Assembly: GCF_003790525.1 (NCBI RefSeq)
Contig: NZ_CP033636.1
From: Escherichia coli
Lineage (GTDB): Bacteria > Pseudomonadota > Gammaproteobacteria > Enterobacterales > Enterobacteriaceae
Length of the DNA: 64,000 bases
Reading direction: 5' to 3' (one strand)
Shown: in pieces, positions 1 through 47,959 of the stretch
Numbering within the stretch: position 1 is the stretch's first letter
Layout: each line of letters starts with the position of its first letter
Position numbers and translations under genes: made by a program
Notes under the pieces: generated by a model
Told to the model about the DNA's origin: nothing
Database searches by the model: none
The model's input: only the letters and a program-made list of their open reading frames with translations

Positions 1-1
1 T

Positions 2-448
2 GCTGCCGGGACCGTCGCGCCAAGCCAGATTCTGCGGAAACTCGCCTCCTATCCGCGGCAGAACGAGCTCGCGACAGCCCTGCGGGAAGTCGGTCGCGTC
101 GAGCGCACCCTGTTCATGATCGACTGGATTCTGGATGCCGAACTCCAACGGCGTGCCCAGATCGGGCTCAACAAAGGCGAAGCTCATCATGCGCTGAAGC
201 GGGCAATCAGCTTCCACCGCCGCGGTGAAATCCGCGACCGTTCCGCCGAAGGCCAGCATTACCGCATCGCCGGCATGAATCTGCTCGCCGCCATCATCAT
301 CTTCTGGAACACCATGAAGCTCGGCGAGGTCGTTGCAAACCAGAAACGCGATGGAAAGCTGCTATCGCCCGATCTCTTGGCCCATGTTTCGCCGCTCGGA
401 TGGGAACACATCAATCTCACCGGAGAATATCGCTGGCCAAAGCCTTAG
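2..448 (+). CDS. tnpA: Tn3-family transposase TnpA, C-terminal fragment (5' part lies outside window); Tn5393-like
   Basis: Frame open from window edge, ends ...[19 protein letters not shown]; same C-terminal motif as the other Tn3-family TnpA copies in this window; stop abuts a Tn5393-type terminal repeat. Confidence 0.8.
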   Translation, partial: AAGTVAPSQILRKLASYPRQNELATALREVGRVERTLFMIDWILDAELQRRAQIGLNKGEAHHALKRAISFHRRGEIRDRSAEGQHYRIAGMNLLAAIIIFWNTMKLGEVVANQKRDGKLLSPDLLAHVSPLGWEHINLTGEYRWPKP

Positions 449-481
449 CGTAGGATTCCGCCCCCTCCCGCAAACGACCCC
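401..481 (-). repeat. Tn5393-type terminal inverted repeat (about 81 bp, 38-bp core 444-481, GGGG terminus at 481)
   Basis: Reverse complement reads GGGGTCGTTTGCGGGAGGGGGCGGAATCCTACGCTAAGGC...; near-identical to the repeat at 2592-2672. Confidence 0.7.
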
Positions 482-1393
482 GTGATGACCCTGCAGGCAT
501 CCCCTGAGACCCGGTTAATGCGCGCCGAGGTGCAGCGGCATTATCCGCACATCTGGCAGGAGCTGGAGGGGCTGGCGCAGGGACTGGAGGCCACTGTTGA
601 TCAGGTCTTTGCCTGGAACTGCCGTGGCGATCTGGTGCGCTCAACGTCGGATGGCTGTACGACGGTGGCCGGGGTAAACGCCGCAGGCGAGCGGATTATC
701 GCGCATAATGAAGACGGTTTTCCTCAGTTACGGGATGAATGCTTGCTGGCTACCATTACTCCGAGTCGCGGTCTGAGCTTTACGAGTTTTGCCTATCCGG
801 GGTCGATTTGCGGCCACACCTTTGCGGTAAATGAAAAAGGTATCGTTAACACGGTGAATAACATCCGTGCAGTGTATCGTCCGCAGGGATTACCGCGTCA
901 GATCCTGGCTCGCGCCTCGCTGAATGCGAACACCCTCGACGAGGCCATCACTATACTTACCGGCCAGCCGCGATCCGGGGCGTTTCACCATACGCTCGGG
1001 CAGCTGGGCGATGCGCGGCTGTTCAGCGTTGAGGCCACCGGTCAAGGCTGTTCCGTTCTACCCCTGACGACGGTAACCGGGCATGCCAACCATCTGGTGC
1101 ATGCGGCACTGGCTGGCGTTGAGCAGATCGTTACCGACAGTTCAGCGTCGCGGCAGTTACGCCTCGTGCAGTGGCGGGAAACGCAACCTCCGTTTGACGC
1201 CGCGGCGGCAAAAACCATTCTCTCAGATACCCATGACGCAGAACTGCCAATTTACCGGCTGGCTGCCGACGATCCGGATGAGGAGAACACCCTCGCCACG
1301 GCAGTTTTCACCCTCGATGCCAACCACGTCAGGTGGCAAATTTTCGACATTAACCGCGACGATGCTAAATTTCATGGAGAAGTGCGTGGGTGA
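482..1393 (+). CDS. Ntn-hydrolase (peptidase C45 / acyl-CoA:6-APA acyltransferase-like) protein, probably 5'-truncated at the transposon end
   Basis: 303-aa ORF starting inside the IR; contains SDGCTTVAG nucleophile-like motif typical of Ntn hydrolases; assignment from motif memory only. Confidence 0.4.
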   Translation: MMTLQASPETRLMRAEVQRHYPHIWQELEGLAQGLEATVDQVFAWNCRGDLVRSTSDGCTTVAGVNAAGERIIAHNEDGFPQLRDECLLATITPSRGLSFTSFAYPGSICGHTFAVNEKGIVNTVNNIRAVYRPQGLPRQILARASLNANTLDEAITILTGQPRSGAFHHTLGQLGDARLFSVEATGQGCSVLPLTTVTGHANHLVHAALAGVEQIVTDSSASRQLRLVQWRETQPPFDAAAAKTILSDTHDAELPIYRLAADDPDEENTLATAVFTLDANHVRWQIFDINRDDAKFHGEVRG

Positions 1394-1546
1394 AATAGCC
1401 GGTCGTCAGTCATAAAGGGCAGGGGAGTACCGTTGGCCCGGCGTTCGATAGTACCGTCCGGATACTGCCAGATATCGGCGTCCAGGGAGATGTCCTGAAG
1501 CGCGGTGTCCGGAATTTCAGGTTTGTGTCTCTACAAAGACTAACTA

Positions 1547-2362
1547 TCAGAAAAACTCATCGAGCATCAAATGAAACTGCAATTTATTCATATCAGGATT
1601 ATCAATACCATATTTTTGAAAAAGCCGTTTCTGTAATGAAGGAGAAAATTCACCGAGGCAGTTCCATAGGATGGCAAGATCCTGGTATCGGTCTGCGATT
1701 CCGACTCGTCCAACATCAATACAACCTATTAATTTCCCCTCGTCAAAAATAAGGTTATCAAGTGAGAAATCACCATGAGTGACGACTGAATCCGGTGAGA
1801 ATGGCAAAAGCTTATGCATTTCTTTCCAGACTTGTTCAACAGGCCAGCCATTACGCTCGTCATCAAAATCACTCGCATCAACCAAACCGTTATTCATTCG
1901 TGATTGCGCCTGAGCGAGACGAAATACGCGATCGCTGTTAAAAGGACAATTACTAACAGGAATCGAATGCAACCGGCGCAGGAACGCTGCCAGCGCATCA
2001 ACAATATTTTCACCTGAATCAGGATATTCTTCTAATACCTGGAATGCTGTTTTCCCGGGGAGCGCAGTGGTGAGTAACCATGCATCATCAGGAGTACGGA
2101 TAAAATGCTTGATGGTCGGAAGAGGCATAAATGCCGTCAGCCAGTTTAGTCTGACCATCTCATCTGTAACATCATTGGCAACGCTACCTTTGCCATGTTT
2201 CAGAAACAACTCTGGCGCATCGGGCTTCCCATACAATCGATAGATTGTCGCACCTGATTGCCCGACATTATCGCGAGCCCATTTATACCCATATAAATCA
2301 GCATCCAGGTTGGAATTTAATCGCGGCCTCGAGCAAGACGTTTCCCGTTGAATATGGCTCAT
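1547..2362 (-). CDS. aph(3')-Ia: aminoglycoside 3'-phosphotransferase APH(3')-Ia (kanamycin/neomycin resistance, Tn903 type)
   Basis: 271-aa translation MSHIQRETSCSRPRLNSNLDADLYGYKWARDNVGQSG... matches the Tn903 kanamycin resistance protein. Confidence 0.95.
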   Translation of the reverse strand: MSHIQRETSCSRPRLNSNLDADLYGYKWARDNVGQSGATIYRLYGKPDAPELFLKHGKGSVANDVTDEMVRLNWLTAFMPLPTIKHFIRTPDDAWLLTTALPGKTAFQVLEEYPDSGENIVDALAAFLRRLHSIPVSNCPFNSDRVFRLAQAQSRMNNGLVDASDFDDERNGWPVEQVWKEMHKLLPFSPDSVVTHGDFSLDNLIFDEGKLIGCIDVGRVGIADRYQDLAILWNCLGEFSPSLQKRLFQKYGIDNPDMNKLQFHLMLDEFF

Positions 2363-2466
2363 AACACCCCTTGTATTACTGTTTATGTAAGCAGACAGTT
2401 TTATTGTTCATGATGATATATTTTTATCTTGTGCAATGTAACATCAGAGATTTTGAGACACAACGT

Positions 2467-2591
2467 GGATTTGTTGAATAAATCGAACTTTTGCTGAGTT
2501 GAAGGATCAGATCACGCATCTTCCCGACAACGCAGACCGTTCCGTGGCAAAGCAAAAGTTCAAAATCACCAACTGGCCCACCTACAATAAA
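2467..2591. mobile_element. IS903 terminal fragment (about 125 bp) upstream of aph(3')-Ia
   Basis: GGATTTGTTGAATAAATCGAACTTTTGCTGAGTTGAAGGATCAGATCACGC... matches IS903 end as found in Tn903; cut off by the Tn5393 IR. Confidence 0.7.
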
Positions 2592-2672
2592 GGGGTCGTT
2601 TGCGGGAGAGGGCGAAATCCTACGCTAAGGCTTTGGCCAACGATATTCTCCGGTAAGATTGATGTGTTCCCA
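2592..2672 (+). repeat. Tn5393 terminal inverted repeat (IRR, about 81 bp) downstream of strB
   Basis: GGGGTCGTTTGCGGGAGAGGGCGAAATCCTACGCTAAGGCTTTGGCCAACGATATTCTCCGG... Confidence 0.8.
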
Positions 2673-2697
2673 GGGGATAGGAGAAGTCGCTTGATAT

Positions 2698-3534
2698 CTA
2701 GTATGACGTCTGTCGCACCTGCTTGATCGCGGCCGCGATAGCTAGATCGCGTTGCTCCTCTTCTCCATCCGCGTTCCAAGCTGCGGAAAGGCACCCATAA
2801 GCGTACGCCTGGTCGAGCAGGCGACGCGGATCGACGTCCAGCGCACGAGAGAATGCGTCCGCCATCTGTGCAATGCGTCTAGGATCGAGACAAAGGTCGT
2901 CTCTGTCAGCCGGATCGTAGAACATATTGGCGGCGCCAAAGCCCACTTCACCGACCAGACCGACGGGATCTATCACCAGCCAGCCGCGACTGGAGAACAT
3001 GATGTTTTCATGATGCAGATCGCCATGTAGCCCACGCAGTTCCGAGGCATTGCTCATCATTTGATCGGCTATAATCGCCGCGTGGACGTAGTCAGTTTGA
3101 CAACCTGCGTTTTGATCATCGCGCGCCCGCTGAAACAAAGCTGCAAAGCGATCCCGGATCGGGAGAAGGGCAGAAGGCAGGGGTTCCTCAGATGCGGCAT
3201 ACAGCTTCGCCATTAGTTCCGCTGCAATTTCGGTCGCCTGGTAGTCGCCGTGCTCGGCAACGATGTGAGAGAGCATTCGCTCCCCGGCATATTCGAGCAA
3301 CATCAGATTGTTCTCACGACCGAGCAACCGGACTGCTCCCCTCCCATTGCGCCATACCAGATAGTCGGCCCCGCGCAGTTCATCAGCAATGTCTTCTATA
3401 GGTTTCAATTCCTTGACGATTGCAGGAGTCCCGTCTGGCAATGAAACTTTCCAAACGAGGCTGGAAAAGGTGTCCGCAATGAGAACAGGTTGCGAAACGT
3501 GCCAATGAGCAGGAAAAACAGGCGGCATGAACAT
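2698..3534 (-). CDS. strB: aminoglycoside 6-phosphotransferase APH(6)-Id (streptomycin resistance)
   Basis: Translation MFMPPVFPAHWHVSQPVLIADTFSSLVWKVSLPDGTPAIVK... (278 aa from internal ATG); overlaps strA stop by 1 nt. Confidence 0.95.
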   Translation of the reverse strand: MFMPPVFPAHWHVSQPVLIADTFSSLVWKVSLPDGTPAIVKELKPIEDIADELRGADYLVWRNGRGAVRLLGRENNLMLLEYAGERMLSHIVAEHGDYQATEIAAELMAKLYAASEEPLPSALLPIRDRFAALFQRARDDQNAGCQTDYVHAAIIADQMMSNASELRGLHGDLHHENIMFSSRGWLVIDPVGLVGEVGFGAANMFYDPADRDDLCLDPRRIAQMADAFSRALDVDPRRLLDQAYAYGCLSAAWNADGEEEQRDLAIAAAIKQVRQTSY

Positions 3535-4337
3535 CAACCCCAAGTCAGAGGGTCCAATCGCAGATAGAAGGCAAGGCGTTCGCGGTCGGGGGCTTCGATC
3601 CCCAATACATTGAATAGGACAGCGAAGGCGCGCTCTGCTTCATCTGGCGCTGCCCAGTTCTCTTCGGCGTTAGCAATCATGAGTGCCAAATCGGCATAGC
3701 GATCTGCTGTTCCGAGCCGCCCAAGGTCGATCAGACCCGTGCATTGAAGAGTTTTAGGGTCCACCATGAAGTTCGGCATGCAGGGATCACCATGGCAAAC
3801 AACCATATCGGTGCGCTCTTGGTCGAGCCGCACCGGTAGCTCTCGTTCGACACGAGCCAAAAGATCGAGCTGCGGCGTACTCTTGTCCTCGTCCGGTAAG
3901 AAGTCGGGATTGACGGCATTGCGGGACACCACATCAACGGCGCGTCCGAACATTCGCGACAGCCTGCGCTCAAACGGACATTGATCAACCGATAGGCTGT
4001 GAACAGCGCCAAGTTGCTGCCCCATTGACGGCCACGCTTTGAGCAAATCCGCTCCAGACAGATCAGCCGCCGGTACTCCCGGAATTGCCGTTATCACCAA
4101 GCATGCACCCTCCTGTTCCTCCTGCCAGTTGATCACCTCGGGGCAAGCCACACCTCGACCTTTGAGCCAAATGAGGCGGTCACGCTCTCCAGCGAGCTCA
4201 CCGCGGCGGGAAGCAGGTGCGATTTTCGCGAAGGCATGCCCGTCACCACGTCGAAAAACAAAATCACCAGATTCTCCGCCTCTGACAGGCAACCAGTCAG
4301 AATGCGATTCACCAAAAAAAATATTAGTTCGATTCAA
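3534..4337 (-). CDS. strA: aminoglycoside 3''-phosphotransferase APH(3'')-Ib (streptomycin resistance), TTG start
   Basis: 267-aa product LNRTNIFFGESHSDWLPVRGGESGDFVFRRGDGHAFAKIAPASRRGELAGERDRLIWLKG... within longer ORF. Confidence 0.95.
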   Translation of the reverse strand: MNRTNIFFGESHSDWLPVRGGESGDFVFRRGDGHAFAKIAPASRRGELAGERDRLIWLKGRGVACPEVINWQEEQEGACLVITAIPGVPAADLSGADLLKAWPSMGQQLGAVHSLSVDQCPFERRLSRMFGRAVDVVSRNAVNPDFLPDEDKSTPQLDLLARVERELPVRLDQERTDMVVCHGDPCMPNFMVDPKTLQCTGLIDLGRLGTADRYADLALMIANAEENWAAPDEAERAFAVLFNVLGIEAPDRERLAFYLRLDPLTWG

Positions 4338-4629
4338 TGGAGGTTCCTTCAGTTTTCTGATGAAGCGCGGAGGTGGCTCAACCTGCGAAAAGAAACGAGT
4401 TGCTATGGACTTGCACCGGTTGTGTTCCGGTCTATCTCTCATTTTAAGCGGCTTTTTTCTCAAATGCCACCGGCGATTTCCAGCCGAGTGTTGAATGTCT
4501 TCGGCGTGGATTATAAAAGCCATTTACCCATATAATGCGCCTACTTATCAGCCTTTGGGACGTTGGGACGGTATTTTTCACTATATACCCCCAAGTTTTT
4601 AGACATGAAAAAAGGGTAATGACTCCAAC

Positions 4630-5133
4630 TTATTGATAGTGTTTTATGTTCAGATAATGCCCGATGACTTTGTCATGCAGCTCCACCGATTTTGAGAACG
4701 ACAGCGACTTCCGTCCCAGCCGTGCCAGGTGCTGCCTCAGATTCAGGTTATGCCGCTCAATTCGCTGCGTATATCGCTTGCTGATTACGTGCAGCTTTCC
4801 CTTCAGGCGGGATTCATACAGCGGCCAGCCATCCGTCATCCATATCACCACGTCAAAGGGTGACAGCAGGCTCATAAGACGCCCCAGCGTCGCCATAGTG
4901 CGTTCACCGAATACGTGCGCAACAACCGTCTTCCGGAGCCTGTCATACGCGTAAAACAGCCAGCGCTGGCGCGATTTAGCCCCGACGTATCCCCACTGTT
5001 CGTCCATTTCCGCGCAGACGATGACGTCACTGCCCGGCTGTATGCGCGAGGTTACCGACTGCGGCCTGAGTTTTTTAAGTGACGTAAAATCGTGTTGAGG
5101 CCAACGCCCATAATGCGGGCTGTTGCCCGGCAT
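4630..5133 (-). CDS. insB: IS1 InsB
   Basis: 167-aa [61 protein letters not shown]... Confidence 0.9.
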
Positions 5134-5327
5134 CCAACGCCATTCATGGCCATATCAATGATTTTCTGGTGCGTACCGGGTTGAGAAGCGGTGTAAGTGA
5201 ACTGCAGTTGCCATGTTTTACGGCAGTGAGAGCAGAGATAGCGCTGATGTCCGGCGGTGCTTTTGCCGTTACGCACCACCCCGTCAGTAGCTGAACAGGA
5301 GGGACAGCTGATAGAAACAGAAGCCAC
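5052..5327 (-). CDS. insA: IS1 InsA
   Basis: 91-aa [46 protein letters not shown]... Confidence 0.9.
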
Positions 5328-5382
5328 TGGAGCACCTCAAAAACACCATCATACACTAAATCAGTAAGTTGGCAGCATCACC

Positions 5383-5561
5383 CGACGCACTTTGCGCCGA
5401 ATAAATACCTGTGACGGAAGATCACTTCGCAGAATAAATAAATCCTGGTGTCCCTGTTGATACCGGGAAGCCCTGGGCCAACTTTTGGCGAAAATGAGAC
5501 GTTGATCGGCACGTAAGAGGTTCCAACTTTCACCATAATGAAATAAGATCACTACCGGGCG
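5383..5561. promoter_or_regulatory. Tn9 catA1 upstream/promoter remnant (cat gene itself absent)
   Basis: ...ACGTAAGAGGTTCCAACTTTCACCATAATGAAATAAGATCACTACCGGGCG matches the region between IS1 and cat in Tn9/pACYC184-type sequences; ends at the IS10 junction. Confidence 0.6.
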
Positions 5562-6120
5562 CTGAGAGATCCCCTCATAATTTCCCCAAAGCGTAACCAT
5601 GTGTGAATAAATTTTGAGCTAGTAGGGTTGCAGCCACGAGTAAGTCTTCCCTTGTTATTGTGTAGCCAGAATGCCGCAAAACTTCCATGCCTAAGCGAAC
5701 TGTTGAGAGTACGTTTCGATTTCTGACTGTGTTAGCCTGGAAGTGCTTGTCCCAACCTTGTTTCTGAGCATGAACGCCCGCAAGCCAACATGTTAGTTGA
5801 AGCATCAGGGCGATTAGCAGCATGATATCAAAACGCTCTGAGCTGCTCGTTCGGCTATGGCGTAGGCCTAGTCCGTAGGCAGGACTTTTCAAGTCTCGGA
5901 AGGTTTCTTCAATCTGCATTCGCTTCGAATAGATATTAACAAGTTGTTTGGGTGTTCGAATTTCAACAGGTAAGTTAGTTGCTAGAACCCATGGCTCCTT
6001 TGCCGACGCTGAGTAGATTTTAGGTGACGGGTGGTGACAATGAGTCCGTGTCGAGCGCTGATTTTTTCGGCCTTTAGAGCGAGATTTATACAATAGAATT
6101 TGGCATGAGATTGGATTGCT
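5562..6120 (-). mobile_element. IS10 fragment (inside end plus 3' part of transposase gene), truncated by IS26
   Basis: CTGAGAGATCCCCTCATAATTTCCCC end; 172-aa ORF 5575-6093 matches IS10 transposase C-terminus (...EETFRDLKSPAYGLGLRHSRTSSSERFDIMLLIALML...). Confidence 0.8.
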
Positions 6121-6940
6121 GGCACTGTTGCAAAGTTAGCGATGAGGCAGCCTTTTGTCTTATTCAAAGGCCTTACATTTCAAAAACTCTGCTTACCAGG
6201 CGCATTTCGCCCAGGGGATCACCATAATAAAATGCTGAGGCCTGGCCTTTGCGTAGTGCACGCATCACCTCAATACCTTTGATGGTGGCGTAAGCCGTCT
6301 TCATGGATTTAAATCCCAGCGTGGCGCCGATTATCCGTTTCAGTTTGCCATGATCGCATTCAATCACGTTGTTCCGGTACTTAATCTGTCGGTGTTCAAC
6401 GTCAGACGGGCACCGGCCTTCGCGTTTGAGCAGAGCAAGCGCGCGACCATAGGCGGGCGCTTTATCCGTGTTGATGAATCGCGGGATCTGCCACTTCTTC
6501 ACGTTGTTGAGGATTTTACCCAGAAACCGGTATGCAGCTTTGCTGTTACGACGGGAGGAGAGATAAAAATCGACAGTGCGGCCCCGGCTGTCGACGGCCC
6601 GGTACAGATACGCCCAGCGGCCATTGACCTTCACGTAGGTTTCATCCATGTGCCACGGGCAAAGATCGGAAGGGTTACGCCAGTACCAGCGCAGCCGTTT
6701 TTCCATTTCAGGCGCATAACGCTGAACCCAGCGGTAAATCGTGGAGTGATCGACATTCACTCCGCGTTCAGCCAGCATCTCCTGCAGCTCACGGTAACTG
6801 ATGCCGTATTTGCAGTACCAGCGTACGGCCCACAGAATGATGTCACGCTGAAAATGCCGGCCTTTGAATGGGTTCATGTGCAGCTCCATCAGCAAAAGGG
6901 GATGATAAGTTTATCACCACCGACTATTTGCAACAGTGCC
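6121..6940 (-). mobile_element. IS26 copy 1 (820 bp)
   Basis: 14-bp terminal IRs GGCACTGTTGCAAA / TTTGCAACAGTGCC at exact 820-bp spacing; flanks ggattgct / acttgacc (no target duplication). Confidence 0.95.
6173..6877 (-). CDS. tnpA: IS26 transposase Tnp26 (IS6 family), G184 reference form
   Basis: 234-aa [35 protein letters not shown]... with ...[10 protein letters not shown]... Confidence 0.95.
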   Translation of the reverse strand: MNPFKGRHFQRDIILWAVRWYCKYGISYRELQEMLAERGVNVDHSTIYRWVQRYAPEMEKRLRWYWRNPSDLCPWHMDETYVKVNGRWAYLYRAVDSRGRTVDFYLSSRRNSKAAYRFLGKILNNVKKWQIPRFINTDKAPAYGRALALLKREGRCPSDVEHRQIKYRNNVIECDHGKLKRIIGATLGFKSMKTAYATIKGIEVMRALRKGQASAFYYGDPLGEMRLVSRVFEM

Positions 6941-6984
6941 ACTTGACCTGATAGTTTGGCTGTGAGCAATTATGTGCTTAGTGC
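6941..6984 (-). other. First ~44 bp of class 1 integron 3'-conserved segment, truncated by IS26
   Basis: Reverse complement GCACTAAGCACATAATTGCTCACAGCCAAACTATCAGGTCAAGT follows a GTTAGAT cassette boundary (6985-6991). Confidence 0.6.
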
Positions 6985-7029
6985 ATCTAACGTCAAAATC
7001 AGCGGCGCGTTTTTATGCGTCCGCTGGAT

Positions 7030-7851
7030 TTACTTGTTGTGCGGCGTCGCAGACTCATTGAACAACCTTTTTGCCTGCGCAATTACAGTTCTCGGAAGCT
7101 CGATATTCAGAGGTTCTGTCACGCTCTTGAACAATTCGAGACTCCACGTCCACGTTTGATGATAGGCTGCACATAGTGCTCTTGGTTCTGCACTGCTTGT
7201 GCATGCCAGATAGCGATTATACGAGTCCTCCGAGATATCCTTTTCGAGCGCGCGTGAAGGTGTCGGCCAGTGGTCTGTTGCCCCTTCGTGGAGTCGAACC
7301 AGCTTGAGTAGGTTTTCATGTGCTTTGCTGAGCAAAGCCCAGGCGCGAGCGTACTCTCCCCGATTTAAAAGATTGGCCCCAAAGAGCATCAGGCTGATGA
7401 GGTTCAACACAAGCCCTTCCACCAGCGGCGCGCCTTCACGTATCGGGGGACCGCCCACGAGAGCGCTTGCGTACCTTGACAACTCTCCTGATCGGTCCAA
7501 CAAAACAGCCGCCTCAAGCGAGGGAAACCACCCATAGCCTTGCCAAGTGGAAATGACCGGTATGTCCGATTTTCGCATGAAATGGAATTCACCGCGAATG
7601 CCGTTTTCAAAAAGTGCGGTGTGGTGGCCGAAGTCGTCCGGAAAGTAAGCAGCAACCGGACTTACGGCATTAAGCCACGAGCGCTGATCGAAATTTTCAA
7701 AATGGTCATCCTGGATGAACACTGCGAATTCGATATCAGAGAACTCGTCACCCTCTCCGATAGCAAATGAGCCGAACATCAATGCCGCGATTATTCGTGC
7801 ATCCTCATGACAACCTTCCTTGAAGAGTTCGATCATTTTCAGTTGAAGCAT
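7030..7851 (-). CDS. lnu(F): lincosamide nucleotidyltransferase Lnu(F) (gene cassette 2 of integron 1)
   Basis: 273-aa MLQLKMIELFKEGCHEDARIIAALMFGSFAIGEGDEFSDIEFAVFIQDD...; cassette context after aadA2 attC. Confidence 0.85.
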   Translation of the reverse strand: MLQLKMIELFKEGCHEDARIIAALMFGSFAIGEGDEFSDIEFAVFIQDDHFENFDQRSWLNAVSPVAAYFPDDFGHHTALFENGIRGEFHFMRKSDIPVISTWQGYGWFPSLEAAVLLDRSGELSRYASALVGGPPIREGAPLVEGLVLNLISLMLFGANLLNRGEYARAWALLSKAHENLLKLVRLHEGATDHWPTPSRALEKDISEDSYNRYLACTSSAEPRALCAAYHQTWTWSLELFKSVTEPLNIELPRTVIAQAKRLFNESATPHNK

Positions 7852-7923
7852 AGAAATATCCTTTTATTGAAGCCACAGATTATGAGGAAAGGTATACGCA
7901 GATTTTTGTTTTTTTTCGTCAGC

Positions 7924-7983
7924 ACAACGCCGGAGTTAAGCCGCCGCGCGTAGCGCGGTCGGCTTGAACGAATTGTTAGACAT
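7924..7983 (-). other. attC (59-be) of aadA2 cassette
   Basis: Reverse complement GTCTAACAATTCGTTCAAGCCGACCGCGCTACGCGCGGCGGCTTAACTCCGGCGTT, imperfect palindrome typical of aadA attC. Confidence 0.6.
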
Positions 7984-8774
7984 TATTTGCCGATTACCTT
8001 GGTGATCTCGCCTTTCACGTAGTGGACAAATTCTTCCAACTGATCTGCGCGCGAGGCCAAGCGATCTTCTTCTTGTCCAAGATAAGCCTGTCTAGCTTCA
8101 AGTATGACGGGCTGATACTGGGCCGGCAGGCGCTCCATTGCCCAGTCGGCAGCGACATCCTTCGGCGCGATTTTGCCGGTTACTGCGCTGTACCAAATGC
8201 GGGACAACGTAAGCACTACATTTCGCTCATCGCCAGCCCAGTCGGGCGGCGAGTTCCATAGCGTTAAGGTTTCATTTAGCGCCTCAAATAGATCCTGTTC
8301 AGGAACCGGATCAAAGAGTTCCTCCGCCGCTGGACCTACCAAGGCAACGCTATGTTCTCTTGCTTTTGTCAGCAAGATAGCCAGATCAATGTCGATCGTG
8401 GCTGGCTCGAAGATACCTGCAAGAATGTCATTGCGCTGCCATTCTCCAAATTGCAGTTCGCGCTTAGCTGGATAACGCCACGGAATGATGTCGTCGTGCA
8501 CAACAATGGTGACTTCTACAGCGCGGAGAATCTCGCTCTCTCCAGGGGAAGCCGAAGTTTCCAAAAGGTCGTTGATCAAAGCTCGCCGCGTTGTTTCATC
8601 AAGCCTTACGGTCACCGTAACCAGCAAATCAATATCGCTGTATGGCTTCAGGCCGCCATCCACTGCGGAGCCGTACAAATGCACGGCCAGCAACGTTGAT
8701 TCCAGATGGCGCTCAATGACGCTTAGCACCTCTGATAGTTGGTTCGAAATTTCGATGGTCACCGCTACCCTCAT
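7983..8774 (-). CDS. aadA2: aminoglycoside (3'') adenylyltransferase AadA2 (streptomycin/spectinomycin), cassette 1 of integron 1
   Basis: MRVAVTIEISNQLSEVLSVIERHLESTLLAVHLYGSAVDGGLKPYSDIDLLVTVTVRLDE...; start chosen at internal ATG of longer ORF that reads through attI1. Confidence 0.9.
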   Translation of the reverse strand: MRVAVTIEISNQLSEVLSVIERHLESTLLAVHLYGSAVDGGLKPYSDIDLLVTVTVRLDETTRRALINDLLETSASPGESEILRAVEVTIVVHDDIIPWRYPAKRELQFGEWQRNDILAGIFEPATIDIDLAILLTKAREHSVALVGPAAEELFDPVPEQDLFEALNETLTLWNSPPDWAGDERNVVLTLSRIWYSAVTGKIAPKDVAADWAMERLPAQYQPVILEARQAYLGQEEDRLASRADQLEEFVHYVKGEITKVIGK

Positions 8775-8922
8775 GATGTCTAACTTTGTTTTAGGGCGAC
8801 TGCCCTGCTGCGTAACATCGTTGCTGCTCCATAACATCAAACATCGACCCACGGCGTAACGCGCTTGCTGCTTGGATGCCCGAGGCATAGACTGTACCCC
8901 AAAAAAACAGTCATAACAAGCC
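8775..8922. other. attI1 recombination region of integron 1 (approximate)
   Basis: Lies between intI1 start (8923) and first cassette; contains the ORF-11-like leader translated as ...PRASKQQARYAVGRCLMLWSSNDVTQQGSRPKTKL. Confidence 0.55.
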
Positions 8923-9720
8923 ATGAAAACCGCCACTGCGCCGTTACCACCGCTGCGTTCGGTCAAGGTTCTGGACCAGTTGCGTGAGCGCATACGCTAC
9001 TTGCATTACAGCTTACGAACCGAACAGGCTTATGTCCACTGGGTTCGTGCCTTCATCCGTTTCCACGGTGTGCGTCACCCGGCAACCTTGGGCAGCAGCG
9101 AAGTCGAGGCATTTCTGTCCTGGCTGGCGAACGAGCGCAAGGTTTCGGTCTCCACGCATCGTCAGGCATTGGCGGCCTTGCTGTTCTTCTACGGCAAGGT
9201 GCTGTGCACGGATCTGCCCTGGCTTCAGGAGATCGGAAGACCTCGGCCGTCGCGGCGCTTGCCGGTGGTGCTGACCCCGGATGAAGTGGTTCGCATCCTC
9301 GGTTTTCTGGAAGGCGAGCATCGTTTGTTCGCCCAGCTTCTGTATGGAACGGGCATGCGGATCAGTGAGGGTTTGCAACTGCGGGTCAAGGATCTGGATT
9401 TCGATCACGGCACGATCATCGTGCGGGAGGGCAAGGGCTCCAAGGATCGGGCCTTGATGTTACCCGAGAGCTTGGCACCCAGCCTGCGCGAGCAGCTGTC
9501 GCGTGCACGGGCATGGTGGCTGAAGGACCAGGCCGAGGGCCGCAGCGGCGTTGCGCTTCCCGACGCCCTTGAGCGGAAGTATCCGCGCGCCGGGCATTCC
9601 TGGCCGTGGTTCTGGGTTTTTGCGCAGCACACGCATTCGACCGATCCACGGAGCGGTGTCGTGCGTCGCCATCACATGTATGACCAGACCTTTCAGCGCG
9701 CCTTCAAACGTGCCGTAGAA
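8923..9720 (+). pseudogene. intI1: class 1 integron integrase intI1, 3'-truncated by IS26 (about 266 of 337 codons retained)
   Basis: [44 protein letters not shown]... reading frame runs into IS26 IR at 9721. Confidence 0.9.
9010..9038 (-). promoter_or_regulatory. Pc cassette promoter, weak PcW configuration (-35 TGGACA, 17-bp spacer, -10 TAAGCT)
   Basis: Reverse strand reads TGGACATAAGCCTGTTCGGTTCGTAAGCT inside intI1 5' region. Confidence 0.6.
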
Positions 9721-10540
9721 GGCACTGTTGCAAAGTTAGCGATGAGGCAGCCTTTTGTCTTATTCAAAGGCCTTACATTTCAAAAACTCTGCTTACCAGG
9801 CGCATTTCGCCCAGGGGATCACCATAATAAAATGCTGAGGCCTGGCCTTTGCGTAGTGCACGCATCACCTCAATACCTTTGATGGTGGCGTAAGCCGTCT
9901 TCATGGATTTAAATCCCAGCGTGGCGCCGATTATCCGTTTCAGTTTGCCATGATCGCATTCAATCACGTTGTTCCGGTACTTAATCTGTCGGTGTTCAAC
10001 GTCAGACGGGCACCGGCCTTCGCGTTTGAGCAGAGCAAGCGCGCGACCATAGGCGGGCGCTTTATCCGTGTTGATGAATCGCGGGATCTGCCACTTCTTC
10101 ACGTTGTTGAGGATTTTACCCAGAAACCGGTATGCAGCTTTGCTGTTACGACGGGAGGAGAGATAAAAATCGACAGTGCGGCCCCGGCTGTCGACGGCCC
10201 GGTACAGATACGCCCAGCGGCCATTGACCTTCACGTAGGTTTCATCCATGTGCCACGGGCAAAGATCGGAAGGGTTACGCCAGTACCAGCGCAGCCGTTT
10301 TTCCATTTCAGGCGCATAACGCTGAACCCAGCGGTAAATCGTGGAGTGATCGACATTCACTCCGCGTTCAGCCAGCATCTCCTGCAGCTCACGGTAACTG
10401 ATGCCGTATTTGCAGTACCAGCGTACGGCCCACAGAATGATGTCACGCTGAAAATGCCGGCCTTTGAATGGGTTCATGTGCAGCTCCATCAGCAAAAGGG
10501 GATGATAAGTTTATCACCACCGACTATTTGCAACAGTGCC
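9721..10540 (-). mobile_element. IS26 copy 2 (820 bp)
   Basis: Exact IS26 IRs; flanks ccgtagaa / attctcac (no target duplication); truncates intI1. Confidence 0.95.
9773..10477 (-). CDS. tnpA: IS26 transposase Tnp26, G184 form
   Basis: Identical 234-aa product to copy 1. Confidence 0.95.
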
Positions 10541-10829
10541 ATTCTCACATGCGATCTCGAGTAGCCAGTTGTGGAAAACCGACATAAACATCCCCTGTTA
10601 CCCTGAAACTCTACTCACCATTTTTTCATAATTATATACAAACAGCCAGAAAGGCTGTTACAGGCGATTTGATCTGCAACCTATTGGTTAAATTAATGTA
10701 TCAAAAACGATGGTTTCTGTGACACATCCCTATAAGCAGTTGCCTATACAATAAAACGCTCTCCGGCTGTAACAAAACCCGTTACAGTATCAATACAACA
10801 AAAACGATGTAACAAAATAGGGTGGCAAA

Positions 10830-10976
10830 ATGATAATCGGCTATGCGCGTAAATCGACACATCTTCAGGATGTAACGCATCAGGTTGATGAACTGACAAA
10901 AGCGGGTTGCGAGCAAATCTATCATGAACAGATCTCACGCGGCGGCACTAAACGCGCCAAAAATGGTGCCCCGGAA
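10830..10976 (+). pseudogene. serine recombinase (resolvase/invertase family) 5' fragment, truncated by IS26
   Basis: MIIGYARKSTHLQDVTHQVDELTKAGCEQIYHEQISRGG... resembles N-terminus of Hin/Gin/TnpR-type recombinases; upstream region carries repeated GTTACAG/TGTAACA motifs. Confidence 0.6.
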
Positions 10977-12193
<1,217 letters not shown>

Positions 12194-13345: not shown

Positions 13346-13383
13346 CTTAACGTGAGTTTTCGTTCCACTGAGCGTCAGACCCC
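13346..13383 (-). repeat. Tn3/Tn2 38-bp terminal inverted repeat (IRR) downstream of blaTEM
   Basis: CTTAACGTGAGTTTTCGTTCCACTGAGCGTCAGACCCC. Confidence 0.9.
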
Positions 13384-13997
13384 GTATATCGCTTGCTGAT
13401 TACGTGCAGCTTTCCCTTCAGGCGGGATTCATACAGCGGCCAGCCATCCGTCATCCATATCACCACGTCAAAGGGTGACAGCAGGCTCAGAAGACGCTCC
13501 AGTGTGGCCAGAGTGCGTTCACCGAAAACGTGCGCCACAACTGTCCTCCGTATCCTGTCATACGCGTAAAACAGCCAGCGCTGACGTGATTTAGCACCGA
13601 CGTAGCCCCACTGTTCGTCCATTTCAGCGCAGACAATCACATCACTGCCCGGTTGTATGCGCGAGGTTACCGACTGCGGCCTGAGTTTTTTAAGTGACGT
13701 AAAACCGTGTTGAGGCCAACGCCCATAATGCGGGCAGTTGCCCGGCATCCAACGCCATTCATGGCCATATCAATGATTTTCTGGTGCGTACCGGGTTGAG
13801 AAGCGGTGTAAGTGAACTGCAGTTGCCATGTTTTACGGCAGTGAGAGCAGAGATAGCGCTGGTGTCCGGCAGTGCTTTTGCCGTTACGCACCACCCCGTC
13901 AGTAGCTGAACAGGAGGGACAGCTGATAGAAACAGAAGCCACTGGAGCACCTCAAAAACACCATCATACACTAAATCAGTAAGTTGGCAGCATCACC
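13384..13997 (-). mobile_element. IS1 fragment (614 bp; insB 3' end and right IR missing), abutting Tn3 IRR
   Basis: Starts inside insB (GTATATCGCTTGCTGATTACGTGCAGC...) and ends with IS1 left IR ...ATCAGTAAGTTGGCAGCATCACC. Confidence 0.85.
13667..13942 (-). CDS. insA: IS1 InsA (within truncated IS1)
   Basis: 91-aa ORF identical in most positions to insA of the complete IS1 at 5052-5327. Confidence 0.85.
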
Positions 13998-14043
13998 CGA
14001 TGCAGCTTTCGTCAATCATGACAGTTATGAGTTTTCCGGTTAC

Positions 14044-15630: not shown

Positions 15631-16450
15631 GGCACTGTTGCAAATAGTCGGTGGTGATAAACTTATCATCCCCTTTTGCTGATGGAGCTGCACATGAACC
15701 CATTCAAAGGCCGGCATTTTCAGCGTGACATCATTCTGTGGGCCGTACGCTGGTACTGCAAATACGGCATCAGTTACCGTGAGCTGCAGGAGATGCTGGC
15801 TGAACGCGGAGTGAATGTCGATCACTCCACGATTTACCGCTGGGTTCAGCGTTATGCGCCTGAAATGGAAAAACGGCTGCGCTGGTACTGGCGTAACCCT
15901 TCCGATCTTTGCCCGTGGCACATGGATGAAACCTACGTGAAGGTCAATGGCCGCTGGGCGTATCTGTACCGGGCCGTCGACAGCCGGGGCCGCACTGTCG
16001 ATTTTTATCTCTCCTCCCGTCGTAACAGCAAAGCTGCATACCGGTTTCTGGGTAAAATCCTCAACAACGTGAAGAAGTGGCAGATCCCACGATTCATCAA
16101 CACGGATAAAGCGCCCGCCTATGGTCGCGCGCTTGCTCTGCTCAAACGCGAAGGCCGGTGCCCGTCTGACGTTGAACACCGACAGATTAAGTACCGGAAC
16201 AACGTGATTGAATGCGATCATGGCAAACTGAAACGGATAATCAACGCCACGCTGGGATTTAAATCCATGAAGACGGCTTACGCCACCATCAAAGGTATTG
16301 AGGTGATGCGTGCACTACGCAAAGGCCAGGCCTCAGCATTTTATTATGGTGATCCCCTGGGCGAAATGCGCCTGGTAAGCAGAGTTTTTGAAATGTAAGG
16401 CCTTTGAATAAGACAAAAGGCTGCCTCATCGCTAACTTTGCAACAGTGCC
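15631..16450 (+). mobile_element. IS26 copy 4 (820 bp), G184N variant type, flanked by 8-bp direct repeat CTTCTGGT
   Basis: Exact IS26 IRs; 15623-15630 and 16451-16458 both CTTCTGGT (target site duplication of a simple insertion). Confidence 0.95.
15694..16398 (+). CDS. tnpA: IS26 transposase, G184N variant
   Basis: ...[15 protein letters not shown]... Confidence 0.9.
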   Translation: MNPFKGRHFQRDIILWAVRWYCKYGISYRELQEMLAERGVNVDHSTIYRWVQRYAPEMEKRLRWYWRNPSDLCPWHMDETYVKVNGRWAYLYRAVDSRGRTVDFYLSSRRNSKAAYRFLGKILNNVKKWQIPRFINTDKAPAYGRALALLKREGRCPSDVEHRQIKYRNNVIECDHGKLKRIINATLGFKSMKTAYATIKGIEVMRALRKGQASAFYYGDPLGEMRLVSRVFEM

Positions 16451-20144: not shown

Positions 20145-20403
20145 GAATACAAGGACAATGCCGGTACCGCCTGATTACTTCTGGCGTCGTCTACAATGTT
20201 ACTCCAGGCATATGCTGCGTCGTCCGGGGTTTGTTTTGGATCTATGTCCAATGTCGGCCAGACGTGGCCCTGATGATTCTTGCCCTTTGTACAGGAAGTG
20301 ATTAAGTGTACTGAGCGTTCAGAGAACATTATCTTCCTTACATACCCATAGAACAGCTTTCTAAGAACGGTGGGCTCGGCTGAAAATTACAAATCAGCCC
20401 CTT

Positions 20404-20766
20404 TCACGGCATCATTTTGATTCTTCGCGTCTGCCCCAGTAAGATGACCGGTTTTCTGCATGACAGTGTTATTCCTAACAAACGCAACACAAAACCACGC
20501 CAGCCAGAGCAAATTTTTTCATTTGCTGCGTAAAGCCTATTGTTTTCTCTTTTAAGCTTCGCCCACTCGTTACAGAGGGTAACATCATCAAGCGCTGTTA
20601 TATGCTTCGCCTCACCTTCGACGATAACGGTATGGATACCGTATGCTGTAAATCTCATACTATTTTCCAGAACCCAGTTGCGGTATTCGTCGAGTCCACC
20701 TTCGGAACCGGTAGCTCTGCGCCACATTTCAATTTGCTTGTGTGATGGGTCAAGTGTACTTGTCAT
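20404..20766 (-). CDS. hypothetical protein (120 aa)
   Basis: ORF only; no recognisable motif. Confidence 0.3.
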   Translation of the reverse strand: MTSTLDPSHKQIEMWRRATGSEGGLDEYRNWVLENSMRFTAYGIHTVIVEGEAKHITALDDVTLCNEWAKLKRENNRLYAANEKICSGWRGFVLRLLGITLSCRKPVILLGQTRRIKMMP

Positions 20767-21408
20767 TGAAGCCTCGTCTCAGCGATAACGCTTGAAATAG
20801 CCCGCTTTGGTCATCATGAAATTAGCCATCTGACTGGCGATTTGATTGTATCTTACTCATAGTGCCCTACCTATAGGTTAAAAAGGGGCATTTTCGCTTT
20901 ATAGCGTGTTCAGCAGCATCAATCCTCCCAAGAAAGGCTGGCTTATTAAGCCGGTCCATCATTTTCTGTATATCTCTCATCAATTTTTATATCCGCCCTG
21001 GAGTGCACCGTTCAAGCACACCGATTAGGCAGATAGTCACTAGTTAACTCTTTACTAGTGACTAAATTCCATTGATATACGTGACAACGTCACGTCATGA
21101 AAGCTTTTAAATGCCTATTTTTCATACAATGGGATTTAATTAGGAGTAAATCCCATAGGCTTACATAAGGATGACAATTAAAAGCGTTAAATATCAACCA
21201 GATAGAATGATTACCCCCAATTAATGGGCTCATCACATTATTTCACTGGCTGGGGTTATTGCTGGCATATCTGAAAGTGCTAATATGTTAGTCATTAGTA
21301 ATTAGTAAAGCCTTTACTAAACGCGTTTCTACGTAATTTCTATAGGTTTTATAGTGTCCTACCTTTGCTCAAATCAAAATGTTCTGACATACCAAAATGG
21401 AGTGTAAA

Positions 21409-22227
21409 ATGACTCAAAACCAGGGTTCTGAGCCAGTACCGGCGAGCCGGACAGGGCAGCTCATCAGCGCCCGGGATATGGCCATGCAGAAATTCGAAGA
21501 AGGGATGCGGTTAATCTCGGAAGCGTCGGAACTGTGCGGTCTCTCTCTCTTCACCAGCAGAATTATGCAGCCCAACGCATTTGGTCTTCCGTCGTCACTG
21601 GATCGCACCATCGAGGAGGGGCGTAAGGAAATTGACCGTAAAACGTGGAAAAGGCTCTTTGAAGAAACAGGTATGGACCGGTACTGGAACCATAAGCAAA
21701 AAGAAGCCTTTAACGAATCCCTTCGTACGGATCCGCCCGTCGCTTCCCTGGAGATTGTTAAGGGAACATTACAGCATGCACTGGCTAACAGACGAGACAC
21801 CCTTGCAGAAGGTTTCGTTGATGTTCTCAACAAGCTTGACCGAAGTTTCAAAAGCAATGCCAGGCAATATACAATGCCAAAAAAGCTTGTTCTTCGGGGG
21901 ATTTTTCCTGGTGTGAACGTGCTGAGGTACAACGGTTTCTCGCAGGACAATCACTTTTGTTTACGCGACTTTGAGAATATTGTATGCATCTGTTCTGATA
22001 CTCCAACACCTGCAACCGGCGGTGGGCTGAGTATGGTCGACAGGCTGACGGCCATGAGAAATACAGAATTCACAGGCGAGGTCAGTGATGAGAATGGCTG
22101 GCGGTGTCGCCTGTTTGAGAATGGAAACGTTCATATTTGCATCGACAGTATCTCGCTTCTGAATGCTCTGAACGATCTTATCAGCATATATTTTGCAAAC
22201 CAGCTTCCGGCCGCAGGAAAAAAATGA
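21409..22227 (+). CDS. hypothetical protein (272 aa), first gene of a two-gene operon
   Basis: ATG at 21409 preceded by GGAG; stop overlaps next start (ATGATGA); low-GC island. Confidence 0.5.
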   Translation: MTQNQGSEPVPASRTGQLISARDMAMQKFEEGMRLISEASELCGLSLFTSRIMQPNAFGLPSSLDRTIEEGRKEIDRKTWKRLFEETGMDRYWNHKQKEAFNESLRTDPPVASLEIVKGTLQHALANRRDTLAEGFVDVLNKLDRSFKSNARQYTMPKKLVLRGIFPGVNVLRYNGFSQDNHFCLRDFENIVCICSDTPTPATGGGLSMVDRLTAMRNTEFTGEVSDENGWRCRLFENGNVHICIDSISLLNALNDLISIYFANQLPAAGKK

Positions 22228-23429
22228 TGATTGAAAATGATAAAGAAAAAAGCCTGAACGATGCTACCCCGCCAGAGGTGCAGAATGACATCCGCAGCGA
22301 ATCCACTGAAAAATCAAAGGAAATGGGTCGTTCAAGGTACTCATCTATCGCGATGATCGATTACTTCAATGCAATCGAACGTCTGTGCAAAGAGAAAGAA
22401 ATTAACCCGGAAAATATCGATCTGAGCTTCAAAGTTCACTGGCTCAGAAACGCTGTTGGCGGCTCGTTTGCAAGGTCACAGGAGATGTTCGCGGAGTACC
22501 AGAAGTATGTTAAAGAGGTTCCTGAAGAGGCCCGTTACCTGGATATACCCGATGAGGTAAAGGTTGCACTCGGCGATATTATCTCGTACATCACCTGGCA
22601 CTACCGTAGAAGCTATACCGCAATACAGAATGATAGTGTTAAAAAAGCTGAAGCACGTAGCATGCAGCTGGAGGAGGAGGTAACGCAGCTGTTACAGCGG
22701 CTTGAGCAAAGCGCTACCGATATGGATGAGCTGAAACTTGAGAATCAGGCACTACAGGGTCGATTAGAGATCCGGGACAGTACCGTCAAGGAGTTAGAAA
22801 CAAGGCTGAATGTTGCCGAAGCAGAACTCGAAACCTGCCATCACCAGTTAGATAGCACACGGCATGAATTGAGCCTCGCACAGCAGTCAAATGACTCACT
22901 CTCCCAGCAACTGGCTGAACGTAAAACAGAGATCGCTGGTCACCTTGAATATCAAAAAAAGCTGAACGAAGAGATCAACACGCAGCGTTCTGATAACGCC
23001 GGTCTTTCCAGACAATGCGACCAGTTAAGTCAGACTGTGTCAGATACAAAGGCAGAGAGGGACAGGTTTGAACAGGAATTGATTGCTGCACAGAACCTTT
23101 GTACTGAGCTGAAAAGTGCACTGTCCGGGAAAGAGGGTGACCTGGTGGCGGTGAATGCCGAGCTTACTGAACTCCATAAACTAAACGAGTCGCTGAGCGC
23201 CGACCTGAATAAAGTAACTTTGGTCAGCCAGGGCTATGAAGCGGAAGTGGCTGAACAAAGCAATGAACTCAAAACGCTCCAGGCCAAAGTAATGAAGCTG
23301 GAAGCTACCCTGGAGGCGGAGAAAACAATCTCAGAATCCCTAAAAGGCACCATTGATACATTAACTGGTGCAATGGCAGGGGGAGGTACTGGAAAGTCAA
23401 AACAGCCGCGTAGCAGAAAAACATCATGA
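22224..23429 (+). CDS. coiled-coil protein (401 aa), KfrA-like architecture
   Basis: Long heptad-rich, Q/E/L/K-rich central region (…LEEEVTQLLQRLEQSATDMDELKLENQALQGRLEIRDSTVKELETRLNVAEAELE…) after a globular N-terminus; translationally coupled to upstream gene. Confidence 0.5.
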   Translation: MMIENDKEKSLNDATPPEVQNDIRSESTEKSKEMGRSRYSSIAMIDYFNAIERLCKEKEINPENIDLSFKVHWLRNAVGGSFARSQEMFAEYQKYVKEVPEEARYLDIPDEVKVALGDIISYITWHYRRSYTAIQNDSVKKAEARSMQLEEEVTQLLQRLEQSATDMDELKLENQALQGRLEIRDSTVKELETRLNVAEAELETCHHQLDSTRHELSLAQQSNDSLSQQLAERKTEIAGHLEYQKKLNEEINTQRSDNAGLSRQCDQLSQTVSDTKAERDRFEQELIAAQNLCTELKSALSGKEGDLVAVNAELTELHKLNESLSADLNKVTLVSQGYEAEVAEQSNELKTLQAKVMKLEATLEAEKTISESLKGTIDTLTGAMAGGGTGKSKQPRSRKTS

Positions 23430-23482
23430 TAAATGAAGCCAGGTTGATACACTTCTCTGCATCCCCTGGCACATAAGAACTT

Positions 23483-23507
23483 CTGCGGACATTCAGCCCG
23501 TCCGCAG
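23483..23507 (+). terminator. putative rho-independent terminator after the coiled-coil gene
   Basis: CTGCGGAC-ATTCAGCCC-GTCCGCAG stem-loop followed by GAGTTTTCG. Confidence 0.45.
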
Positions 23508-23708
23508 GAGTTTTCGTCCTTCAGTCAACAAATGCACTACCTTTTTTGAGTCTCCACTTTCCAGAGCAGAAAACACGTTACCGATTCTACCAACAGCTTG
23601 TATCTGAGTGATAACCCCAGTCTTGTAATCATCTAGGATCCCTGACAGGAAAGCGTTCAGTTTTGTCTGTTCGCTTAGCGAAAGCATGTAGGACATTTTT
23701 TCTCCATT

Positions 23709-25028
23709 TTAAGCAGGTGTGTCAGTTGAAAGAGGTTTGCGTGATTCTGGAAAATGAGGCAGCACCATAGTTTCAGATGCTGTGGTCGCATCCCAGTGCC
23801 ACCATCCATAAGGCCCATATTCACGGTTGTAATAATCTTTTTTGAGTTGCTTTCGGGCCAGATAAGCAGGAGTGGCCATACCAAATACTTCCATCGGGAA
23901 CGGCTTATCGCTTTTTGTGTCGAGCAGGTAGAAGTCAGGGAACACCTCACTAATACTCGCATCATAACGCATGGGCTTAACGTACTGCCGGTGCTCTGCA
24001 TCCAGCTTTTCTGCAACAACCGCCTCATAGGAGGAGTCCAGAGGTATCCAGTTCTCGCTAACGTGCATCAGCACAATTTGATGAGCTCTTACAGAAGGGC
24101 CTCTGCCGGTTACCGCAGCTGGTGACGTCAACGCAAAGACAACTATTTTCGCCCCGGATTTCCATGCTGCGTACTCCGATGAAAATCGTTTCTTTACGCT
24201 ATCCCAATGGACTTCTGAATTGAAAAAAATCAGCGGTAGCCCCCCAAAATTCCGCAGGGGTAAAAATTTAAGTGGCTTCTCATGCTTTTCAGCATCGTAG
24301 CGAGGTAAAACTGACAGGAGCATGAGACGTTTATCACTCATCGCCTGTGATGAAAGACGCTGAATTTGCGACTGAGCGACAGGTTGTTTCGGGTCAGGTA
24401 CACCAATGAATAAATGGTCACCTATGCAGGCTCTGCCGGTACGAATTTGTTTAGCGGTTTCAAGCAGACGATACCGTACCAGTGAATCGTTACGTTTCCC
24501 TGCCATTTTCGGGTACCAGACATTCAGACCAGACTCTGTCCACAAAAGACTAAGCAAGCCCAGGAGGGTCATTGAGGCCTGACCTCCTTCTGGTCGCTGA
24601 ACATGGGGCAGGGGAGGCACTTCTGATTTTTCAGGAGGATCTTTCTCTGTCATACCGATACCGAGCCTTACAGCCATATCACCTTCGGTTGTAATCCGGA
24701 CCACACCACTCGCATATCCTTTCAGGCCGGTATGCCGGGCATCAAGGGAGAAGAATACACAGGAAGGATCATGCTCAATGCCCGTGTTAGCGGCTTTGAC
24801 GAGAATAAAGGCATCACCGTTCGGTAAAGCACGAACATAAAGTCGCTTTTCTCCTTTTCCACGACATCCGCAGGTGATGACTGATTTTTGACCTGAGGTG
24901 TGGTGTGCCTTTTTAAGAGCCGACTGCCACCCTTTAGCAAACTCATCCTGCGTTTGAAAGTCAGGTGAATACCTTTTGACGTTTGGATCGTCGTCGTAAG
25001 CAATCATCACTGCGAATTTTTGGCTCAT
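23709..25028 (-). CDS. hypothetical protein (439 aa), last large gene of methyltransferase operon; candidate effector/restriction component
   Basis: SD AGGAGA 8 bp upstream of ATG; contains CGCRGKG and other Cys/His-containing segments; no confidently recognisable nuclease motif by eye. Confidence 0.6.
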   Translation of the reverse strand: MSQKFAVMIAYDDDPNVKRYSPDFQTQDEFAKGWQSALKKAHHTSGQKSVITCGCRGKGEKRLYVRALPNGDAFILVKAANTGIEHDPSCVFFSLDARHTGLKGYASGVVRITTEGDMAVRLGIGMTEKDPPEKSEVPPLPHVQRPEGGQASMTLLGLLSLLWTESGLNVWYPKMAGKRNDSLVRYRLLETAKQIRTGRACIGDHLFIGVPDPKQPVAQSQIQRLSSQAMSDKRLMLLSVLPRYDAEKHEKPLKFLPLRNFGGLPLIFFNSEVHWDSVKKRFSSEYAAWKSGAKIVVFALTSPAAVTGRGPSVRAHQIVLMHVSENWIPLDSSYEAVVAEKLDAEHRQYVKPMRYDASISEVFPDFYLLDTKSDKPFPMEVFGMATPAYLARKQLKKDYYNREYGPYGWWHWDATTASETMVLPHFPESRKPLSTDTPA

Positions 25029-25050
25029 AGTAGTCTCCTAAACAGGAAGT

Positions 25051-25218: not shown

Positions 25219-25278
25219 GGTTGACCTCTGACATTATTACAACAATCTTAAGCATTTAAATTGATGAAGGAGCTCAGG

Positions 25279-27436: not shown

Positions 27437-27438
27437 CC

Positions 27439-47943: not shown

Positions 47944-47959
47944 AACAAAGTTAAACATC

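Follow-up and report, generated by a model that had tools for sequence, protein, structure and literature searches.

A chloramphenicol-resistance promoter stranded next to truncated IS10-Right and IS26 on a large resistance plasmid of Escherichia coli: anatomy and probable history of a transposon scar

On a large natural resistance plasmid, the upstream region of a chloramphenicol acetyltransferase gene runs directly into one end of an IS10, which is itself cut by an IS26, and the gene is nowhere to be seen. How did the promoter come to lose its gene, which of the mobile elements around it took part, and does the remaining structure still do anything? We addressed these questions in a window of 64 kb (the whole stretch of DNA that was analysed, to which all positions below refer unless a reference plasmid is named). 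A first-pass annotation had described the order IS1, a Tn9-type cat upstream segment of about 180 bp, 559 bp of IS10 counted from its inside end, and IS26, and all of its coordinates hold.

Plasmid R100 (NC_002134.1) served as the reference, with which the window was compared by local BLAST and by direct base comparison. Positions 4615–5561 aligned with R100 21992–21046, that is, with IS1b and the catA1 upstream region, over 947 bp without gaps, and the four mismatches (5079, 5082, 5085 and 5121) all fell within IS1. This IS1 (4615–5382, minus strand, 768 bp) was delimited from the R100 alignment, its ORFs insA (5052–5327) and insB' (4630–5133) and the annotation of identical plasmids, where PGAP names it 'IS1A family'. 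The adjoining catA1 upstream remnant of the Tn9/Tn2670 type (5383–5561, plus strand, 179 bp) was identical to the IS1-to-catA1 spacer of R100 (21224–21046) at 179 of 179 positions, so the segment attributed to Tn9 does match on alignment. Its origin can be named only by type, because the downstream half of the unit is gone and Tn9 is then not distinguishable from Tn2670 or the R100 r-determinant. The left inverted repeat (IRL) of IS1 at 5382 adjoins the upstream sequence directly; the latter begins CGACGCACTTTGCGCC, and the boundary between IS1 and CGACGCACTTT is the same as in R100. This is the native boundary of Tn9/Tn2670, and IS1, which the first-pass annotation had counted as one of three eroding elements, is therefore a part of the unit, which was damaged by two IS events only.

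A second, directly repeated IS1 that would close the transposon was not found in the window, where the only further IS1 sequence is partial and diverged. That copy (13383–14009) has about 95% identity to the R100/Tn9-side IS1, is a different variant and lies in an unrelated context. We also noticed that the IS1 at 4615–5382 shows no 9-bp duplication across 4614/5383, and that a short ORF between strA and this IS1 (4444–4581) may encode the C-terminus of an IS3-family transposase, possibly as a remnant of IS1133/Tn5393.

The window and R100 part exactly after position 5561. In the window CACTACCGGGCG is followed by CTGAGAGATCC, whereas in R100 it is followed by TATTTTTTGAG, with the cat ATG 44 bp on. 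From 5562 to 6120 (minus strand) the window contains a truncated IS10-Right, named 'ISVsa5 family' by PGAP, which was identical to the IS10-Right of the R100 Tn10 at 559 of 559 positions counted from the inside end; it differed from IS10-Left at seven positions and was of the R type at all seven diagnostic sites. Identities of 179/179 and 559/559 on the two sides of the junction cannot be due to chance. The IS10 inside end at the junction, CTGAGAGATCCCCTCATAATTTCCCC, is the authentic terminus and identical to that of R100 IS10-Right. The three bases before it are GCG in the window and GCA in the interior of Tn10. As the preceding bases are not common with the Tn10 interior, the break coincides exactly with the IS10 terminus, which is the mark of transposition and not of illegitimate recombination. 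Microhomology at the junction had been considered after BLAST extended the match by 3 bp, and was rejected on the direct comparison of GCG with GCA.

The last 9 bp before the break, TACCGGGCG (5553–5561, plus strand), represent the probable IS10 target and the putative left copy of a former target-site duplication. The right copy would be lost in the window; it is seen after the outside end of IS10 in IncF plasmids, to which we return below, and in laboratory insertions. What is left of IS10 amounts to 559 of 1329 bp and lacks the outside end, pIN and pOUT. Its ORF (5575–6120, minus strand) covers the C-terminal part of the transposase only, with the N-terminal part missing, and is an annotated pseudogene in identical plasmids. 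No further IS10 sequence beyond 5562–6120 was present in the 64-kb window, and catA1 (R100 20342–21045) had no match anywhere in it.

All elements of the cat promoter lie upstream of the IS10 break, so the remnant holds the complete promoter together with 15 nt at the start of the cat leader. The promoter core (Pcat, 5511–5547, plus strand) consists of the −35 element ACGTAA (5511–5516), a 17-bp spacer, the −10 element CATAAT (5534–5539) and the start site, a G at 5547. These positions were placed from a mutagenesis oligonucleotide and its numbering (PMC3407185), and they agree with the description of the TACCGGGCG target as '22 bp downstream of the -10 element' (PMC4574204). The −35 element is poor, with two of six consensus matches, and a consensus promoter scan of 5300–7100 did not call Pcat, which fits this poor −35.

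The junction itself can be read directly, and its precision, together with an analogy from the laboratory, suggests that IS10-Right inserted 15 nt into the cat leader, between +15 and +16, at the target TACCGGGCG. IS10 recurrently lands at 5'-TACCGGGCG-3' between Pcat and cat in the pACYC184-derived vectors pSU8 and pSW (Gonzalez-Prieto, Agundez and Llosa 2015, PMC4574204). In the vectors the insertions are complete IS10 elements, with both ends sequenced and a 9-bp duplication, at the same nucleotide; they were found in at least four independently derived constructs and took over cultures at high chloramphenicol (PMC4574204). The authors proposed, without measuring it, that outward IS10 promoters drive cat again and that this was the cause of the selection. 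According to the legend to Fig. 2 of that paper the IS10 'begins in nucleotide 1329', that is, with its inside end, and the orientation reads as the same as in the window. The first-pass annotation had it that cat was replaced by IS10. It is clear that cat is absent, but IS10 would have been inserted precisely into the leader, and the gene would have been lost in a later event involving IS26.

The IS26 that truncates IS10 (6121–6940, minus strand, 820 bp) is intact, with intact 14-bp terminal inverted repeats and a 705-nt tnp26 (6173–6877, minus strand). The 8-mers that flank it differ (AGCAATCC on the IRR side, GGTCAAGT on the IRL side), and this lack of an 8-bp target duplication points to a deletion or recombination junction. 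On its far side IS26 adjoins an lnu(F)-aadA-ΔintI1 integron fragment, which is closed off by a further IS26 of the same orientation; the bases right beside IS26 on that flank we take to be a truncated integron 3'-conserved segment. The aadA cassette by lnu(F) (7936–8774) is annotated as frameshifted in identical sister plasmids, and the window ORF of 336 aa (7983–8993, minus strand) runs through aadA into the upstream sequence. Altogether seven IS26 copies are present in the 64 kb (6121–6940, 9721–10540, 10977–11796, 15631–16450, 42848–43667, 49483–50302 and 61503–62322). A target duplication accompanies one of the seven (15631–16450; 8 bp, CTTCTGGT), and the others mark rearrangement junctions. 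The duplication CTTCTGGT is also noted in the description of the region in PMC8920835. Most likely, an IS26-mediated adjacent deletion or a recombination between IS26 copies removed the rest of IS10 together with catA1.

We therefore consider it highly probable that the structure arose in three steps (a Tn9/Tn2670-type unit, an insertion of IS10-Right and an IS26-associated event), which left a non-functional scar. The presence at the start of a unit of the order IS1-Pcat-catA1 can be read from the preserved part. IS10-Right would then have entered the cat leader by transposition, its inside end pointing to Pcat, so that the outside end with its outward pOUT faced catA1; cat would have been cut off from its weak native promoter and, by analogy with the vectors, may have been driven again from the outward IS10 promoter. 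In the third step, whose junction is preserved, an IS26-associated event would have truncated IS10 at bp 559 and fused it with the IS26-bounded lnu(F)-aadA integron fragment, either by adjacent deletion or by homologous or targeted recombination between IS26 copies, with loss of the outside 770 bp of IS10 and of catA1. Afterwards a group of large plasmids would have passed on the scar without change, and in some of them Tn7051, carrying blaNDM-5, landed there. The loss of catA1 probably cost nothing, because two phenicol exporters, cmlA (45571–46878) and floR (52370–53584), are encoded in the same window. Further resistance genes of the window are qnrS, a member of the blaOXA-10 family and aadA1, located among 41177–41833, 47143–47943 and 47921–48751.

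We built the predicted ancestor, Pcat-IS10R-TACCGGGCG-cat, and used it as a search query. An intact Pcat-IS10(1329 bp)-TACCGGGCG-catA1 intermediate was found neither in PLSDB nor among 5,426 complete E. coli genomes. The 36-mer across the junction of Pcat and the IS10 inside end, AAGATCACTACCGGGCGCTGAGAGATCCCCTCATAA, was absent in its exact form from GTDB representative genomes and JGI metagenomes. In relatives no IS10 longer than 559 bp was found on Pcat, with a probe that is blind to an extension of less than about 45 bp. Similarly, we looked for the reciprocal product of the IS26 event, in which IS26 would be followed by bp 560–1329 of IS10 and catA1 (IS26 joined to GGATTGCTTTTAGTCAGCC): a 1,287-bp probe returned no record that covered the IS26-IS10 joint, and an earlier, 328-bp probe gave two-piece matches only among the 15 matches listed, an ambiguous outcome. 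Since neither the intact intermediate nor the reciprocal product was found, the insertion step is read from one junction and from analogy.

An insertion of IS10 by itself is not the only event that could set its inside end against Pcat. The two inside ends of a resident Tn10 may attack a nearby target in an intramolecular rearrangement that produces a deletion or an inversion, and such a rearrangement would at the same time have deleted or inverted catA1. It is established that such inside-end events put the inside end of Tn10 against new DNA, and an inside end abutting new DNA, as seen here, is just the product they give. In addition, Tn10 adjoins catA1 units in plasmids of Shigella and of the IncF type, and it is frequent in older IncHI plasmids (bioRxiv 10.1101/334409). 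However, a solo IS10 insertion also sets the inside end against its target, the vector events at the same 9-mer are complete IS10 insertions with both ends sequenced (PMC4574204), the complementary junction of the outside end with TACCGGGCG and catA1 exists in nature, and neither tet(B) nor other Tn10 sequence was found in the window. We regard a Tn10 rearrangement as improbable on these grounds. Insertion of a whole Tn10 with its outside end on Pcat (Pcat-TACCGGGCG followed by CTGATGAATCCCC) was searched for as a separate candidate, and PLSDB gave 0 records at a coverage of at least 80%; with no such junction in PLSDB, nothing points to a whole-Tn10 insertion on the Pcat side.

The complementary junction mentioned above, with the IS10 outside end, TACCGGGCG, TATTTTTTGAG and catA1 in one piece, was found in about 20 IncF E. 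coli plasmids and in one chromosome. Examples are p3PCN033 (L005, 7004–8400), pMG336 (L008, 12004–14045) and p13C1079T-1 (L009, 12001–14042). In these plasmids it is Pcat and IS1 that are missing, whereas the window misses cat; catA1 has no Pcat and stands directly behind the outside end of IS10, where pOUT lies. The IS10 beside catA1 represents the left arm of Tn10 (IS10-Left) or a hybrid of L and R: most copies are IS10-Left without admixture to within 24 bp of the outside end, and the catA1-proximal copy of pMG336 (L008, 12004–13332) is of the L type at 30–81 and of the R type at 427–1306. The truncated IS10-Right of p3PCN033 has the L allele at 427, and the allele patterns indicate exchange between IS10 copies. 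In pMG336 and p13C1079T-1 a Tn2 end truncates the other arm of Tn10, IS10-Right, at bp 692.

An inside-end junction cannot arise from an outside-end junction by homologous recombination, and both junctions are therefore primary transposition products; together they look like what one solo IS10 insertion would leave. It may be, although we are doubtful, that the IncHI2 scar and the IncF fusion of Tn10 with catA1 are indeed the two halves of one ancestral IS10 insertion, and that in the IncF lineage Pcat and IS1 were deleted by a crossover between this IS10 and the IS10-Left, in direct orientation, of a Tn10 that the plasmid also carried. The junctions complement each other exactly and agree in 9-mer and orientation, the L/R pattern of pMG336 is the one expected from a crossover between IS10-Right and IS10-Left, and the orientation of IS10-Left relative to the cat unit in R100 is the one that is needed. 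Yet the mostly pure IS10-Left copies would need a crossover within the last 23 bp or a later gene conversion, and independent hits are equally plausible at a site that has proved to be a recurrent hotspot under selection. Because the IncF copies are of the L type or hybrid and the window copy is of the R type, the two lineages may record independent hits of the hotspot and not halves of one event. Slightly more tentative still is the wider proposal that the scar and the IncF fusions each preserve one half of a single natural IS10 insertion, that chloramphenicol in the field selected an insertion of the vector type, and that catA1 in the roughly 20 IncF plasmids is expressed from an IS10 promoter instead of the native one. 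The native cat promoter is catabolite-sensitive.

The three-step history leaves Pcat intact, as the first-pass annotation had stated when it described an outward-facing promoter left behind, but the DNA downstream speaks against its hint of a function. There is no plus-strand ORF downstream of Pcat; all three plus-strand frames are filled with stop codons after +1, and the IS10 transposase remnant, tnp26, lnu(F) and aadA all lie on the opposite strand of this DNA. Judged from the sequence, the scar now probably does nothing, and any Pcat transcript would run antisense through the IS10 remnant and IS26 and encode nothing. We see it as a probable non-functional relic with no predicted phenotype. 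One could imagine that the promoter was co-opted, with antisense transcripts across tnp26 and lnu(F)/aadA, or transcripts meeting an outward promoter at the IS10 inside end, modulating IS26 activity or cassette expression, and that this explains the conservation of the scar. The location of outward promoters at the IS10 inside end is taken from a secondary citation. Besides the intact promoter with its upstream region, the lack of any terminator-like site in a scan of 5300–7100 and the 100% conservation of the scar in dozens of plasmids would fit such a role. We nevertheless consider it most improbable. Recent common descent explains the conservation, since the flanks are identical too (window 1–11796 is 100% identical to pG3X16-2-2 over 11.8 kb), and sister plasmids tolerate the insertion of the 3.2-kb IS3000 or the 14-kb Tn7051 158 bp upstream of the start site, as well as the loss of the ΔIS10-IS26-lnu(F) segment. 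The target of these insertions in sister IncHI2 plasmids is the 5-bp ACTTT at 5389–5393 (plus strand), which is uninterrupted in the window; pNDM-M121 reads CGACGCACTTT, IS3000, ACTTTG at the remnant.

We also examined how widely the scar occurs. A 1.1-kb probe across it matched 46 PLSDB records at a coverage of at least 80%, at least 30 of them with 100% identity from end to end, and 33 complete E. coli genomes. Hosts among the PLSDB matches listed were E. coli, Salmonella, E. fergusonii and K. oxytoca, and the sources included pig, chicken, duck, human and sewage. Both scar plasmids whose typing was checked (n = 2) were IncHI2A. A probe made of the 179-bp segment and the 5' end of cat found catA1 in 659 PLSDB plasmids. 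A block of 17.4 kb in the window (20145–37577) is 99.9% identical to pG3X16-2-2 and inverted, and the window thus comes from a rearranged relative and not from pG3X16-2-2 itself.

As a structure, the scar is already known, since the same region appears in published maps and in many sequenced plasmids, and both of its components are known. The literature search found no paper in which the spacer is identified as the cat promoter or connected with the hotspot of the vectors. Its use is that of a precise lineage marker for one multidrug-resistance region on large plasmids, which are IncHI2 where typed, and it marks the landing spot of the blaNDM-5 transposon Tn7051. The scar is of small importance outside annotation and plasmid archaeology, and the phenicol resistance of the window comes from cmlA and floR.

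Among the closest known systems is the IncHI2 region of PMC8920835, mapped there as IS1...ΔIS10-IS26-lnu(F)-aadA2-IS26, which is the same DNA as the window, except that the window has no IS3000/Tn7051 at ACTTT. In that description Tn7051 (blaNDM-5) is placed 'between IS1 and IS10R', with the target-site duplication ACTTT, and in this wording the spacer is named by its neighbours and not as a cat promoter remnant. The Tn9/Tn2670 r-determinant of R100 (NR1) shares the boundary of the IS1 IRL with CGACGCACTTT and the 179-bp upstream region; unlike R100, the window lacks catA1, with neither ybjA/Tn21 nor a second IS1 downstream, and its IS1 differs from IS1b at the four positions given above. Activation of otsBA by IS10 pOUT in experimental evolution (PMC2744996) resembles the window in that IS10 sits in a 5' leader at a non-consensus site, +12/+13 there and +15/+16 here. 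It concerns another gene, and there the activated state was kept, with pOUT reading into the gene, whereas the window holds a scar from which the pOUT end is gone. From the vectors of PMC4574204 the window differs in lying on a natural large resistance plasmid and in holding the promoter-side junction only, the outside end and cat having most likely been removed by IS26. With those vectors it shares the Tn9-derived sequence, the TACCGGGCG target 22 bp after the −10 element, a precise IS10 terminus and, as the figure legend reads, the inside end toward Pcat. The cat-leader hotspot for IS10, in the literature found described only in cloning vectors, would thus have been hit in natural plasmids too, and the scar may be seen as a small natural counterpart of a laboratory artefact.
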